NCBI GenBank assembly: GCA_965219415.1
Contig: OZ244742.1
Span: forward strand, 1,152,001-1,216,000
Length of the DNA: 64,000 nt
From: Candidatus Marinacidobacterales bacterium
Lineage (GTDB): Bacteria > Acidobacteriota > Vicinamibacteria > Marinacidobacterales > DATDRI01
Reading direction: 5' to 3'
Both the position numbers and the translations under genes were made by a program. Below, in pieces: positions 599 to 5,140 of this stretch (positions are counted from its first letter, which is position 1; every line of letters begins with the position of its first letter). The notes below the pieces were generated by a model. The model was not told the DNA's origin, searched no databases, and was given only the letters and a program-made list of their open reading frames with translations.

Positions 599-2587
599 GT
601 GACTCGAAAAGATTCGTCGGCGCCCCGGAGCCCCTCCGCGCTCAGCCGATGGCTTTCGAAATACCCGCTGCTCACTCTGGCCACCCTCGGCTTCGGAGCG
701 GCGGGTGTTCTACTCTGGCACTTCTCACGGCTGTCTTCCGAGCTGAGAGAGGCAGCGACGATAGAAAGTGCCGCCCGGTACTCCGAAGTGCTCGCCGAGT
801 TTCGAACGATCTACACGTCGGAGGTGGTGTCTCGGCTACGACCTCAGGGCATCGAAGTCACTCACGACTACCGATCGAAAGAACGTGCCATCCCACTCCC
901 CGCCACGCTGGCCTGATTCTTGGCGAACGAATCGGCAGAAATGGGTCCTCCGTCCGGGTGAGGCTCTATAGCGAATACCCTTTTCCGTGGCGTGAAGACG
1001 GGGGTCCGAGAAACGAGTTCGAACGGGCTGCCCTCGGCCATTTGAGGCGAACGCCGAACCGACCCTTCTTTCAATTCGCCGAGCTCCAGGGTCGACCCAC
1101 GCTGCAGTACGCAACGGCAGATCTCATGAGATCCCAGTGCATAGGTTGTCACAACTCCCACCCCGACAGTCCCAAAAGGGACTGGGCAGTGGGAGACGTG
1201 CGAGGCGTCCTCGAGGTCATCTTACCGATGGACAACGTGGAAGCGGTGGCTCGAACTGGGCTCAGAGGCACGTTGCTCCTGACATTGACCCTCATTCTGA
1301 CGGGCCTTGGTCTACTGGCCGTCGTAATCACCGGGCTCCGGCGCTCCTGGAAGATGGAGGAAAGACTGCAGGCACAACTGCGCCATTCTCAGAAGATGGA
1401 AACTATCGGAACGTTGGCGGGCGGCATCGCTCACGATTTCAATAACGTTCTGACTCCCATCCTCGGCTACGCGAACATGGCCCTTCGAGACACCCCTCCC
1501 GAAAGCCGCACCTATTCCGACATTCAGCACGTCGTCAGCGCCGGCAAACGCGCCAAAGAGCTCGTGAATCAGATTCTGACATTTAGTCGACGGACGGAGT
1601 GAGCCGGAGCGCAAACCGATCCAGATCGCACTCATCGTCACCGAGGCGCTGAAACTTCTCCGCTCTTCCCTGCCGTCCACGATCGAGTTCCGCCAAAACA
1701 TCGACCCGGATTGCGGTACTGTGCTTGCCGATGCGACCCAGATTCACCAGGTCCTTATGAATCTGTGCACTAACGCCTTTTTCGCCATGAGCGAGAACGG
1801 AGGGATGCTCGAAGTGAATCTGGATGTCGTGGAGTTCGACGACGAACTCGCGCGACCCCATCCCAAACTCGCTCTCGGACCTTATGTGAGGCTGACCGTC
1901 AGCGATTCCGGCCATGGAATGGATCCCGAGACCAGGGACCGCATCTTCGAACCGTTCTTTACGACCAAGGGCGTCGGCAAAGGGACCGGCCTCGGCCTTT
2001 CTGTAGTCCATGGAATCGTCGTGAACCACGGCGGCCAGATCACTGTATACAGCGAGCCCGGCTTGGGAACTACTTTCCACGTCTACTTGCCGCGCTCGGA
2101 GGCCCCGGCAGAGGAGCGAAAGGCGGCCCGCGTCCACCCGGAGGTCGTCATCACCGGCAGCGAACAGGTGTTGGTCGTGGATGATGACGAAGAGGTCGCT
2201 CGAATGGCGGAACAAATGCTGAAAAGGCTCGGTTACCGCGTAACGGCGTTCACCAACAGCGCCGAAGCCCGGGATACGTTCCTCGCCCACCCCGAGCGAT
2301 TCGACATCGTCATCACGGATCAGACGATGCCCCAGCTAACCGGCGTCGAACTGGCCAAGGAGCTGCTCGCCGCCCGGCCCGACCTACCCATCATTCTGAT
2401 TAGCGGTTTTAGCGAGCTCATCACTGGGGCGAAGATCAAGAAACTCGGGATTCGGCACTACCTCATGAAGCCCCTGGTCGGCGGCGAGCTTGCGGCTACG
2501 ATCAGACAAGTCCTAGATAAGGATGATGAAAGGGAAAAAACGAGACGCAAGAGGAGGGATGAGCGATGGCCCAAATTCTTGTTGTAG
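599..2587 (+). pseudogene. Hybrid sensor histidine kinase (Tll0287/DUF3365-like heme-c sensor, HisKA, HATPase, receiver) with two frameshifts
   Basis: TM helix, CIGCH heme-c motif, H-box LAGGIAHDFNN, PFFTTK..GKGTGLGL, receiver (VLVVDDD, ITDQTMP, KP). Split by a 1-nt loss near 914 and a CGGA duplication at 1591-1598. Confidence 0.9.
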
Positions 2588-2922
2588 ACGACAACGACGA
2601 TATACGGGAAATGCTCCGGCAACTACTGGAACGCGCCGGCCATGATGTCTCCGACACCCACAACGCGGACGAGGCGTTACAGAGCTACCGAGACAAGCCG
2701 GCGGATCTCCTCATCGTCGATCTACTGATGCCAGATAAACAGGGCATGACCAGCATCCCGGAGTTCCTGCGGGAGTTCCCAGACGTTAAGATCATTGCGA
2801 TTTCGGGGGCCGGCCGGGAGTTTCTCGCCATCGTCAAGAAGCTCGGCGCCCAACGCGCATACACCAAGCCTTTGGAGCTCGATGAGCTGATGCAAGGCGT
2901 CCAAGAGCTCCTTGGCGATTGA
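2566..2922 (+). CDS. Single-domain response regulator receiver
   Basis: ILVVDDN, DLLIVDLLMP, IIAISG and TKP motifs; overlaps the kinase 3' end. Confidence 0.92.
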   Translation: MAQILVVDDNDDIREMLRQLLERAGHDVSDTHNADEALQSYRDKPADLLIVDLLMPDKQGMTSIPEFLREFPDVKIIAISGAGREFLAIVKKLGAQRAYTKPLELDELMQGVQELLGD

Positions 2923-2932
2923 GGAGGAAGGA

Positions 2933-3391
2933 ATGCAACGAATGATTATACTCGTTTCGCTCATAGTCTTCGCAGCTTCCGCGGTCATCGCGCAGGAAGC
3001 CGATCAACAAGTCGCCGAAGAGATCATCGCCATCACGAAGGCGCAGTGGGCGGCCGAAAAGGAAAAGAACGTAGCGGAAGCGATGAAGAACGTCGCCGAC
3101 GAGTACACCGAGTTCAACCCCAACTCCCCGTTCCGCGTCGATGGGAAGGCGTTGGCTGTCCAAATCCAAGAGGTCCTCTCCACCGGAAACGGCAGATCGG
3201 TCTTGGCCGAGATGGCCAATGAGAAGGTCCAGGTCTATGGGGACGTCGCGATCCTCACCTACAACTATTTCGGCGCGGTCAAGGACGAGAACGGCAACAT
3301 TCAGCAAACACCCGCCAAGTCGACTCGTGTCTACGCGAAGAAGAACGGAAAGTGGATGCTCGTCCACGCCAACTTTGCGGTCGCAAATTGA
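2933..3391 (+). CDS. Exported NTF2/SnoaL-like (DUF4440) protein
   Basis: GAGGAGG RBS, signal peptide, VQVYGDVAILTY...TRVYAKKNGKWMLVHANF. Confidence 0.85.
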   Translation: MQRMIILVSLIVFAASAVIAQEADQQVAEEIIAITKAQWAAEKEKNVAEAMKNVADEYTEFNPNSPFRVDGKALAVQIQEVLSTGNGRSVLAEMANEKVQVYGDVAILTYNYFGAVKDENGNIQQTPAKSTRVYAKKNGKWMLVHANFAVAN

Positions 3392-3402
3392 GAGGACAAC
3401 TT

Positions 3403-3912
3403 CTACGAGCAGGACCGGTAAACAAGCATTCCCAAAACCCCGGCCACCACCCCCAGAAGGAGCGTGATCACAGTCTTGGTCCTCGACGTTCCCCCTTGCG
3501 CCTGGGTTGAGATCATCTCGCCGAAGGATGCGGCTTTGACTTGCTCATCCAATTGTTCGACAACGGCGATGGCCTGCTCGGTGGGTTTGACGTACCTCTT
3601 CACTCCGCTCTGAACGTCCCACATCTGGACCATGACGTACTGCAGACGAGCTAGTGAAGACAAAATGTCGTGAAACTCTGTCCCCAGCACCTTGCCGGCT
3701 GCAACGTCGTAACCGACATCCGCCGCTAATTGCGGCTCTTGGACCCACCCGTGTTTTTCGATCTTCCTCCCCCCGGGACTCTCGAGGCGAGAGCCATCCG
3801 CGCCTCTTGGGCTTGTGTCGGTGGGGCGGTGAAAGTTGACGAGAATCGTCAGGACTCTTTTCTCGTCCGGAGTTAGTTTGTCCGTCACGACATGCTCTCG
3901 AGGAATCCTCAC
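3403..3912 (-). CDS. Hypothetical protein with C-terminal membrane anchor
   Basis: 169-aa ORF with C-terminal TM (VITLLLGVVAGVLGMLVY). Its GTG start overlaps the extended rhodanese stop (GTGA). Confidence 0.6.
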   Translation of the reverse strand: MRIPREHVVTDKLTPDEKRVLTILVNFHRPTDTSPRGADGSRLESPGGRKIEKHGWVQEPQLAADVGYDVAAGKVLGTEFHDILSSLARLQYVMVQMWDVQSGVKRYVKPTEQAIAVVEQLDEQVKAASFGEMISTQAQGGTSRTKTVITLLLGVVAGVLGMLVYRSCS

Positions 3913-4406
3913 GGATTCATTTTAATGGGCACCCCGAGCCCCGTCTCCACCGGATGGCCCCCTAGATCCCATGCACCGAAACCACCTTTCAGCGCCGAAA
4001 CATTCGCGAATCCTGCCGTCTTGAGCACAAGCGCCGCACGGGCGCTAATCTCTTCGGCCTGTCACGTGCAGTAGGTGACAATCGAAGCATCGCGACTGAT
4101 CTCTGGAACGCGTTTGCCGAGATCGTTAAGGGGAATGGAGATAGCTCCGGGAATGTGTCCTCGCAGGAAGCTGTCTCGGTTCCGCACATCGATGACTATA
4201 ACGTTGGGCTCTTTTGGCCTTTCGAGGAGGGACAGGAAATCTTCGAGCGAGATTCGTGCAATGTCCGTCTTGCCGAACTCCTTGTTGCGCTCGACCGATC
4301 GCGGTTCTTCAGAAACAGCGGGGACGCGAGCATCGGAGGGCGGCCCCTCGCAAGCCGCGGCCAGCAGAAGCGACGCAAGAATCACAAGCGATCCGTAGGC
4401 CTTCAC
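3909..4406 (-). CDS. Rhodanese-like lipoprotein, probable selenoprotein (in-frame TGA at 4062-4064)
   Basis: Lipobox LLAAAC, IDVR...F..GHIPGA, IVTYCT-TGA-QAEEISARAALVLKTAGFANVSALKGGFGAWDLGGHPVE, final TGA at 3909-3911. Confidence 0.85.
4030..4046 (-). promoter_or_regulatory. Candidate bacterial SECIS hairpin
   Basis: AGCGCC-CGTGC-GGCGCT stem-loop starting 15 nt 3' of the in-frame TGA. Confidence 0.6.
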
Positions 4407-4636
4407 ATTGTCCTTCCTTGTCCTTCCTTCGGTTTGTGGAGTTGGTCGGGAAACGGGTAGCTCCCCCTCAAGAAATTATACGCGAATCTGGCCTTTCGAG
4501 CGATCGGGAGCCCTGTGGATTGACATTGGAAGGCGGTGGGTCTAGCCTACCGCCCAGCGTTCTAAAAGCCTCCCTCATTCCAGCCGGTTACAAGGAGGCA
4601 TCTAATAAGAAAATACCCTTTCATGCGGGGGAAATC

Positions 4637-5140
4637 ATGACGAAATGTGAATTCTTATTGACCGCGGGGGCGCTGCTCGCCGTTATTGCCTGCGGCCCCC
4701 CGCCCGTCCCGCCACCCGAAGCGACACCCGAGATCGACATCGAAGCAGAAAGAGCCGCGCTGACCGAAGCCGCCAACCGCTATAACGAGAGCGGCCATTC
4801 GATGGACATCGACGCTATGGCATCCCTTTACGCAAGCGACGCTTTGGTGATGCCTCCCAACATGGAGACGCAGGAAGGGGCGGAAGGAGTCCGCGAGTTC
4901 CTGACCGCCTTCAAGGAGCTCCCCGGTTTCGAGGTCAGCTTCGGAACGCCGACCGTCGTGGTATCCAAGGGAGCCGACATGGGCTACACGCTCGCCGATA
5001 TCGAGCTCTCGTTCGACGGCCCGGATGGAAAGCCGGTGAGCTCGCGGGAACGTGATTTCCATCTTTGGAGAAAACAGGCAGACGGTTCTTGGAAGATTGT
5101 CGTTGACATTTGGAACTCGCCGGTTCCCGCAGGCGAGTAG
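4637..5140 (+). CDS. SnoaL/DUF4440 family lipoprotein
   Basis: Lipobox VIAC, Pro-rich linker, LYASDALVMPPN, SKGADMGY, WRKQADGSWKIVVDIWNS. Confidence 0.85.
   Translation: MTKCEFLLTAGALLAVIACGPPPVPPPEATPEIDIEAERAALTEAANRYNESGHSMDIDAMASLYASDALVMPPNMETQEGAEGVREFLTAFKELPGFEVSFGTPTVVVSKGADMGYTLADIELSFDGPDGKPVSSRERDFHLWRKQADGSWKIVVDIWNSPVPAGE

Follow-up and report, generated by a model that had tools for sequence, protein, structure and literature searches.

Does an in-frame TGA in a small rhodanese gene end that gene, or does it encode selenocysteine (Sec)? The question is raised by a gene on the minus strand of a 64,000-nucleotide (nt) stretch of DNA from Candidatus Marinacidobacterales bacterium (assembly GCA_965219415.1, contig OZ244742.1, positions 1,152,001 to 1,216,000; hereafter the window, to which all coordinates refer). 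In a mechanical list of open reading frames (ORFs) the frame ends at 114 amino acids (aa; 4062..4406); an initial annotation of the window had proposed that it continues through the TGA as a 165-aa selenoprotein with a rhodanese fold. Conservation of the TGA, purifying selection, a hairpin downstream of the codon and the Sec machinery of the genome all favour that proposal. We put the probability that the gene encodes an exported rhodanese selenoprotein with a Cys113-Sec115 loop at roughly 0.88, and regard the narrower claim within it, that TGA 4064-4062 codes for Sec in a gene of 165 residues, as very probable and somewhat more secure than the whole. The elements on which the argument turns are as follows.

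3912..4406, minus strand: full coding sequence of the predicted selenoprotein gene, 165 codons counting TGA 4064-4062 as a Sec codon
4404..4406, minus strand: GTG start codon, given by the sequence and the ORF list and found at the same place in orthologues
4068..4070, minus strand: TGC, codon of Cys113, which lies where the central strand ends, in the place of the rhodanese catalytic Cys
4062..4064, minus strand: in-frame TGA, predicted Sec115; this column holds TGA in 28 and Cys in 12 sequences of a 40-sequence alignment (A2)
4030..4046, minus strand: predicted bacterial Sec insertion sequence (SECIS) hairpin, stem AGCGCC/GGCGCU, loop CGUGC
3909..3911, minus strand: TGA, the true stop codon, overlapping GTG 3912-3910 (GTGA)

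After ...IVTYCT, the frame past the first TGA reads QAEEISARAALVLKTAGFANVSALKGGFGAWDLGGHPVETGLGVPIKMNP and ends at TGA 3911-3909. Translated with TGA as U, the gene runs through ...IVTYCTUQAEEISARAAL... and ...GGFGAWDLGGHPVE... to the terminal TGA, giving 165 residues. The 114-aa product matches the Pfam family Rhodanese with 42.7 bits over profile positions 5-68 of 102, and the read-through protein matches it (PF00581, gathering score 22.2) with 65.5 bits over positions 5-99, corresponding to residues 60-146; the sequence after the TGA is thus the C-terminal half of a rhodanese domain, as had been claimed. The positions initially given for the GTG, the TGA, the second half, the final TGA and the hairpin 15 nt after the first TGA were all confirmed on the minus strand. 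At the start, the orthologues read V-K-A-(Y/H)-G in the corresponding position and database proteins begin MKA(Y/H)G. The TGA at 4062-4064 is covered by contigs of four public sequencing runs from four studies without an alternative letter, although the window assembly may itself derive from one of them. Because the contigs of all four runs show the same letters there, the TGA is no assembly slip. In two runs (X7 and X10), the stretch with the TGA and the SECIS element (4054-4083) is exactly where Logan contigs break off and overlap, which may be due to nearby strain variation.

The TGA is kept at the same codon in three orthologues: two from the same genus (G001, with 76% identity, and G002, with 67-68%) and one on a metagenome contig (L068, 79%). 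All three share the motif IVTYCTUQ(A/S)E around it. The orthologues align with the window protein across residues 1-162, and their C terminus, three residues shorter, likewise ends at a TGA (...PIQ-TGA); the comparison revealed no frameshift and no second stop before the shared C terminus. The search of metagenome contigs that found L068 returned otherwise one unrelated rhodanese, and a single-protein search of genome contigs returned distant rhodaneses only (from Sporosarcina and several metagenome-assembled genomes), which were not used. Together with 24 distant homologues, the orthologues make 27 further TGA genes that share the codon position, down to about 30% identity. Alignment of homologues, a check proposed with the initial annotation, therefore finds either a conserved TGA or Cys at column 115 of A2, which comprises 40 family sequences. 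Cys113 is invariant in all 40, as are D73, G87, Y112, G132, G142, W146 and, as Sec or Cys, position 115. In a sample of 401 genomes from the phylum, 89 had a match at E ≤ 1e-13, and the best 29 foreign loci comprise 22 with TGA and 7 with a Cys codon. The nearest sense-codon relatives (P0013-15) read IVTYCTCGG. Pairwise ratios of nonsynonymous to synonymous substitution rates (dN/dS) among four close orthologues are 0.18-0.45 after the TGA (41 codons) and 0.26-0.34 before it (65 codons); as the two ranges are alike, we conclude that the downstream half is translated.

The hairpin follows the TGA after a spacer of 15 nt (4061-4047, minus strand). Its arms, AGCGCC (4046-4041) and GGCGCT (4035-4030), form a 6-base-pair (bp) stem around the loop CGTGC (4040-4036); the distance from the UGA to the apical loop is 21 nt and the local hairpin energy is -10.0 kcal/mol. 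We aligned the 63 nt from the TGA in all 28 TGA forms without gaps (alignment A1), and found a standard pair in every one of the 140 cells of the five-pair core (columns 20-24 against 30-34). Two core pairs show compensatory change, GC to CG in five sequences and CG to UA in two, and the outer pair 18-36 changes from GC to CG in four. The GC-to-CG change coincides with a switch of Ser codon from AGC to UCC that is offset on the other stem arm, and the CG-to-UA change consists of two synonymous third positions. Over a 7-pair helix, 92.9% of cells are paired, compared with 29-56% after a shift of the partner by 1-3 columns. Columns 24 (an Ala codon) and 30 (an Ala or Val codon) are invariant third positions in 28 of 28 sequences, despite fourfold degeneracy.

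The Fig. 2A legend of PMC13188914 describes bacterial SECIS elements as having a loop of 3-9 nt, an upper stem of 4-16 bp, a G in the first two loop positions, a distance of 16-37 nt from the UGA to the apical loop and a minimum free energy of -7.5 kcal/mol or lower. Applied to a 19-nt hairpin piece, these constraints admit 26 of the 28 TGA forms, including the window element, versus none of 8 Cys forms; the two TGA forms left out have -6.6 kcal/mol on the bare 19-nt piece. No such hairpin lies downstream of UGA 3911-3909. The description of the element as SECIS-like, made from the window alone, is therefore borne out by published constraints and by core pairs that persist in all 28 TGA forms.

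Decoding of UGA as Sec would also require the corresponding machinery, which the initial annotation had named as a point to check. The window genome (8.05 Mb in 3 contigs, 96% complete, 8.45% contamination) encodes all four components sought: a tRNA-Sec (69.7 bits, gathering score 47; ARAGORN classifies it as SeC with anticodon TCA), SelA (475.8 bits), SelB (58.5 bits, wing-3 domain) and SelD (328.3 bits, on contig C3). The selD gene, too, encodes a selenoprotein: its frame contains a TGA at ...VTCAGUASKLSP, directly followed by a hairpin. Because these genes sit on contigs other than that of the window, we checked the single-contig genome G001, in which tRNA-Sec (70.9 bits), SelA (474.3 bits) and SelB (58.5 bits) lie on the same molecule as the orthologue. 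In G002, which is 91% complete, tRNA-Sec and SelA are present and the wing-3 domain of SelB was not found with that family. Ordinary genes of the window end at TGA, for example at 3911-3909, so there is no sign of genome-wide recoding of TGA.

Three other accounts of the codon have to be weighed against Sec. The TGA could be a nonsense mutation of a former Cys codon, with the downstream frame decaying, an outcome that the initial annotation had itself considered plausible. A change of one base would make it TGC or TGT, gene callers end the ORF at it and Cys homologues exist; however, the same codon recurs in the 27 other genes, selection on the codons after it is purifying, the frame is intact up to the shared C terminus and the hairpin is conserved with compensatory changes. 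The four independent runs argue against a version of this account in which a shared assembly error made the stop. We consider such a pseudogene hardly credible. A little less improbable, but still very unlikely, is that the UGA mostly terminates, so that the product is a 114-residue fragment, with little or no synthesis of the rest. Release factor 2 is a competitor of Sec decoding, and the Sec-form product of this locus is predicted from sequence, our search of sequencing runs having found no RNA run that holds the locus. Against this, the fragment would end one residue past the catalytic Cys and would be without the final strand-helix units of its fold, and purifying selection on both the downstream half and the hairpin indicates that the full-length product matters.

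The remaining account accepts read-through and replaces the amino acid: near-cognate or other suppression would insert Cys, Trp or Gly at the UGA. Cys is tolerated at column 115 in 12 homologues, and in other systems the Sec machinery can insert Cys under selenium shortage. Set against these points are a SECIS-type hairpin at the canonical distance in every one of the TGA forms, a complete Sec machinery that includes a Sec-containing SelD, and the use of TGA as an ordinary stop in the window; we judge a residue other than Sec to be about as improbable as termination.

Several results nevertheless weigh against the selenoprotein reading or limit it, among them the negative search for RNA runs given above. 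The selenium content of the protein is a prediction from comparison. The finding that none of 500 shuffles matched the observed pairing or covariation overstates the significance and gives no true probability, because the sequences are related. The hairpin overlaps the codons of a conserved S-A-R-A-A-L stretch, so its conservation is partly at the protein level, and two of the 8 Cys forms (L030 and L075) still make the five core pairs. A 71-nt fold around the TGA has z = -1.05 versus shuffles, which is no unusual stability, and the case for the hairpin therefore stands on conservation across homologues and not on energy. An Rfam scan of 3850-4450 with E up to 10 gave one chance match to a small nucleolar RNA and none over the hairpin. 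The best NCBIfam match of the window protein, NF041203 'rhodanese-related (seleno)protein' (model positions 16-125 of 126), has an equivalog cut-off of 115 bits, and the protein is below it with 70.7 bits (64 in the genome search). As to function, no operon partner is shared among the 85 flanking ORFs that we scanned in 31 family loci; because the gene neighbours of the family are heterogeneous, no pathway is indicated.

The predicted selenoprotein consists of a putative export signal, a linker and a single rhodanese domain.

4350..4406, minus strand: predicted signal peptide with lipobox, residues 1-19 MKAYGSLVILASLLLAAAC, Cys19 being the putative lipidated residue
3933..4259, minus strand: rhodanese domain, residues 50-158, from AlphaFold2, Foldseek and a PDB profile search

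The segment ILASLLLAAAC matches a lipobox-type pattern modelled on the PROSITE lipoprotein rule. The corresponding stretch reads LLLVTSC in G001 and LLLVPSC in G002, the latter failing the pattern. Across the family, N termini are lipobox-type, signal-peptide-like or made up of a single membrane anchor, and on this basis we consider an extracytoplasmic location likely. In the initial description of a membrane-anchored extracytoplasmic lipoprotein, the anchor is accordingly putative and based on the pattern match. Residues 20-49 form a low-confidence linker of about 30 residues rich in Pro, Glu and Ser. The AlphaFold2 model has a mean predicted local distance difference test (pLDDT) score of 83.7 and a predicted template modelling (pTM) score of 0.69; pLDDT is 55-68 for residues 1-49, and blocks of 10 residues from 51 to 160 average 82-98. 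The top Foldseek matches are all rhodanese domains (3tp9, 3nhv, 3ilm, 5ve5, 1yt8 and YgaP), the best being 3tp9 (E 9.3e-9, root mean square deviation 1.9 over 106 columns), and the PDB profile search gave 1yt8 at 1.2e-40.

In the model, Cys113 comes directly after strand 108-112; in the profile search it is aligned with the Cys of 3tp9 in 'VYC--RTGGRS'. The active-site loop is Cys113-Thr-Sec115-Gln-Ala-Glu-Glu, with YCTU at residues 112-115. In the profile alignment it appears as YCtCpaeetS versus YC--RTGGRS and is, between the Cys and the conserved Ser, two residues longer than that of 3tp9; its residues are acidic where the classical rhodanese loop has Gly and Arg. The initial label of sulfur/selenium transferase was a guess; the loop is without the basic residues of classical thiosulfate sulfurtransferases.

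How the gene would work can be sketched as follows. The hairpin at 4046-4030 would recruit SelB with Sec-tRNA(Sec), so that UGA 4064-4062 is decoded as Sec; UGA 3911-3909 would terminate translation. The protein would then be exported and lipid-anchored outside the cytoplasm. There, Cys113 and Sec115 might form a reversible selenenylsulfide, or carry sulfane sulfur in persulfide or selenopersulfide form; the domain would then be an extracytoplasmic redox or sulfur-carrier module rather than a classical thiosulfate:cyanide sulfurtransferase. We put forward redox or sulfur-carrier chemistry at the Cys-Sec pair only tentatively, as somewhat less than an even chance. A broader and unlikely possibility is that the clade represents phylum-wide exported Cys-x-Sec rhodaneses, in the form of lipoproteins, secreted proteins, membrane-anchored proteins and VTT/DedA-type fusions missed by the curated model, that act as an extracytoplasmic selenenylsulfide relay. 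Such a relay would link partners in the envelope, for instance complexes of the DsbD or NrfCD type, by passing reducing equivalents or sulfane sulfur from one to another, and within the genus it could work with a conserved membrane protein without family assignment that is encoded directly downstream. Relay chemistry of this kind is, to our knowledge, undescribed for the rhodanese fold.

Irrespective of chemistry, the consequences for annotation are direct. Eleven database proteins with 66-99% identity to the window protein all end at ...IVTYCT, so annotation truncates the gene, as had been expected. At least 11 public protein clusters, four of them with NCBI as a source, hold fragments of 111-149 residues whose last residue is the one following the catalytic Cys. 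A widened NF041203 model, or a second one of that type, would correct a family that is represented by 22 of the best 29 foreign loci in the phylum scan. The locus is, in addition, a clean worked example of Cys/Sec pairing plus SECIS covariation, and its product, being small, probably exported and invariant in its Cys-x-Sec loop, offers a tractable subject for the role of selenium in extracytoplasmic sulfur chemistry.

Two further features flank the rhodanese gene.

3403..3912, minus strand: downstream gene, encoding 169 aa if it starts at GTG 3912 and 161 aa if it starts at GTG 3888
4410..4429, minus strand: tandem 10-nt repeat AAGGAAGGAC, two copies, purine-rich and directly upstream of the GTG start

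The 169-aa downstream protein has a hydrophobic C-terminal segment and no match in Pfam or NCBIfam, nor any in the ESM Atlas at 0.9 or above. Its gene lies next to the rhodanese gene in all three orthologous loci and, at 80-86% identity, exceeds it in conservation; this downstream gene was not seen beside distant homologues in the family loci searched. Because the orthologues of the downstream protein align from residue 5-9 on only, its true start may be GTG 3888-3886, 20 nt past the stop. The coupling proposed for the two genes is accordingly borne out as far as the GTGA overlap of stop and GTG, with GTG 3912 being uncertain as a real start. A terminator scan of the minus strand found none between the two genes and one at 3367-3352, and no sigma-70-like promoter site was found in 3250-4700; the two genes are probably co-transcribed. 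The tandem repeat AAGGAAGGAC resembles a Shine-Dalgarno site and may serve in ribosome binding. In one contig of run X7 a gap of 10 letters occurs at 4408, and the number of repeat copies therefore differs between strains.

Around the pair lie several DUF4440/SnoaL-like genes, some with lipoprotein-like N termini (window 2566-3391 and about 4600-5140; also locus L019). A response-regulator gene is nearby, preceded by a gene that by eye resembles a histidine kinase. The DUF4440 and response-regulator labels come from G001, whose orthologous locus is arranged in the same order. Across the 31 family loci, a fused 4Fe-4S/NrfD-type gene lies beside three (L071, L086 and L092), and other neighbours include tandem Usp genes in three, YceI in two and selB in two. 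The rhodanese gene next to selB is a Cys form in one case (L076) and a Sec form in the other (L085).

Other Sec-containing rhodaneses were met in the course of the searches. At L035, L040 and L042 (genomes G024, G030 and G036), the TGA takes the place of the catalytic Cys itself (VVYUAVGGRS) and the rhodanese is joined in one protein to a rubrerythrin-type domain (41.4 bits to Pfam Rubrerythrin at L035). A third type, with YCGSPTUPLG or YCGSDTUPLA (L021 and L036, from G057 and G055), has an ion-channel domain as its fusion partner (44.4 bits to Pfam Ion_trans_2 at L021). At L025, L032 and L098, the C-x-U loop and hairpin are at the C terminus behind a VTT/DedA-type domain, assigned by Pfam for L025 only (VTT_dom, 49.2 bits), and at L116-L118 they follow a long hydrophobic N-terminal part.

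CxU rhodanese selenoproteins are not new as a kind and have been in the literature since 2005. PMC13188914 and PMC9312934 list a CxU rhodanese in their tables as a predicted selenoprotein, crediting Zhang and Gladyshev 2005, and in the available portions of these two papers the family is present solely as such a table entry. The entry 'rhodanese-like form 3, CxU' corresponds to the kind described by NCBIfam NF041203 (rhodanese_LYCAU), which PMC9312934 calls 'COG0607 form 2, CxU'. The available portion of PMC5877670, on Geobacter ExtH/ExtI, has no bearing on the family. Our own scans place the window gene relative to the curated model. We know of no CxU rhodanese selenoprotein with a tested function. 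None of 61 relatives (a tally that counts the unpublished genome G007, used nowhere else) has a protein over the NF041203 cut-off, and 2 of the 401 genomes of the phylum sample do (G206 with 118.5 bits and G328 with 116 bits, with one TGA each). Wider-clade members that were scanned (9 with TGA and 2 with Cys) score 64.6-89.4 bits. Because G206 and G328 additionally hold closer relatives of the window protein (L075 and L074) and so carry both kinds, we conclude that the window clade is a paralogous sister of NF041203 proper.

The two proteins over the cut-off (L109 and L110) share with the window protein a single rhodanese domain, Cys-x-Sec where the central strand ends, the C-T-U motif, a signal-like N terminus and the distance of the hairpin from the TGA. 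Their motif, IVTFCTUP(N/S)EGTSARVAL, follows the pattern C-T-U-P-x-E-x-T-S-A-R; by contrast, the window loop (TYCTUQAEE) has no Pro after Sec, and the residues before Sec read FCT rather than YCT in L109 and L110. The hairpin of L109 is AGCGCC-CGUGU-GGCGCU and that of L110 has the 3' arm GGCGUU, both at the offset seen in the window gene.

Among characterized rhodaneses, GlpE, PspE and YgaP of Escherichia coli have the same fold, with the Cys at the same strand end; YgaP (5hbo and 5hbl) was found by Foldseek, and GlpE (1gmx) and PspE (2jtq) by the profile search. PspE and YgaP are located outside or at the membrane. The window protein is nevertheless not one of these families (NCBIfam GlpE 34.5 bits against a cut-off of 102, PspE 30.1 against 102), and it differs from classical sulfurtransferases, with their short CRTGGRS-type loop of Cys plus 5 residues, in a loop two residues longer, Glu in place of basic residues and Sec as an extra redox residue. 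TsoB, listed in PMC13188914, is similar in having a Sec-bearing rhodanese domain (NF045694, rhodanese/DsbD fusion-like, UxxxxU). The window protein matches that model weakly, with 24.6 bits over the rhodanese part (cut-off 805), and unlike TsoB it has no DsbD membrane domain and one Sec rather than two. The TsoB rhodanese is tied to an envelope thiol-redox module, and the Cys-form relative L095 adjoins a DsbD-type gene. Sud of Wolinella succinogenes, a periplasmic polysulfide-sulfur transferase that serves polysulfide reductase, has a single Cys and no Sec. As a small exported rhodanese-type protein proposed as a sulfur carrier it resembles the window protein, a likeness of function that is speculation only; a fused 4Fe-4S/NrfD-type gene, present beside three of the 31 family loci, does not neighbour the gene in the window, and the window protein has a predicted Sec. 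Taken with its position beside NF041203, the window gene is a divergent member of the known, predicted CxU kind that lies outside the curated model.

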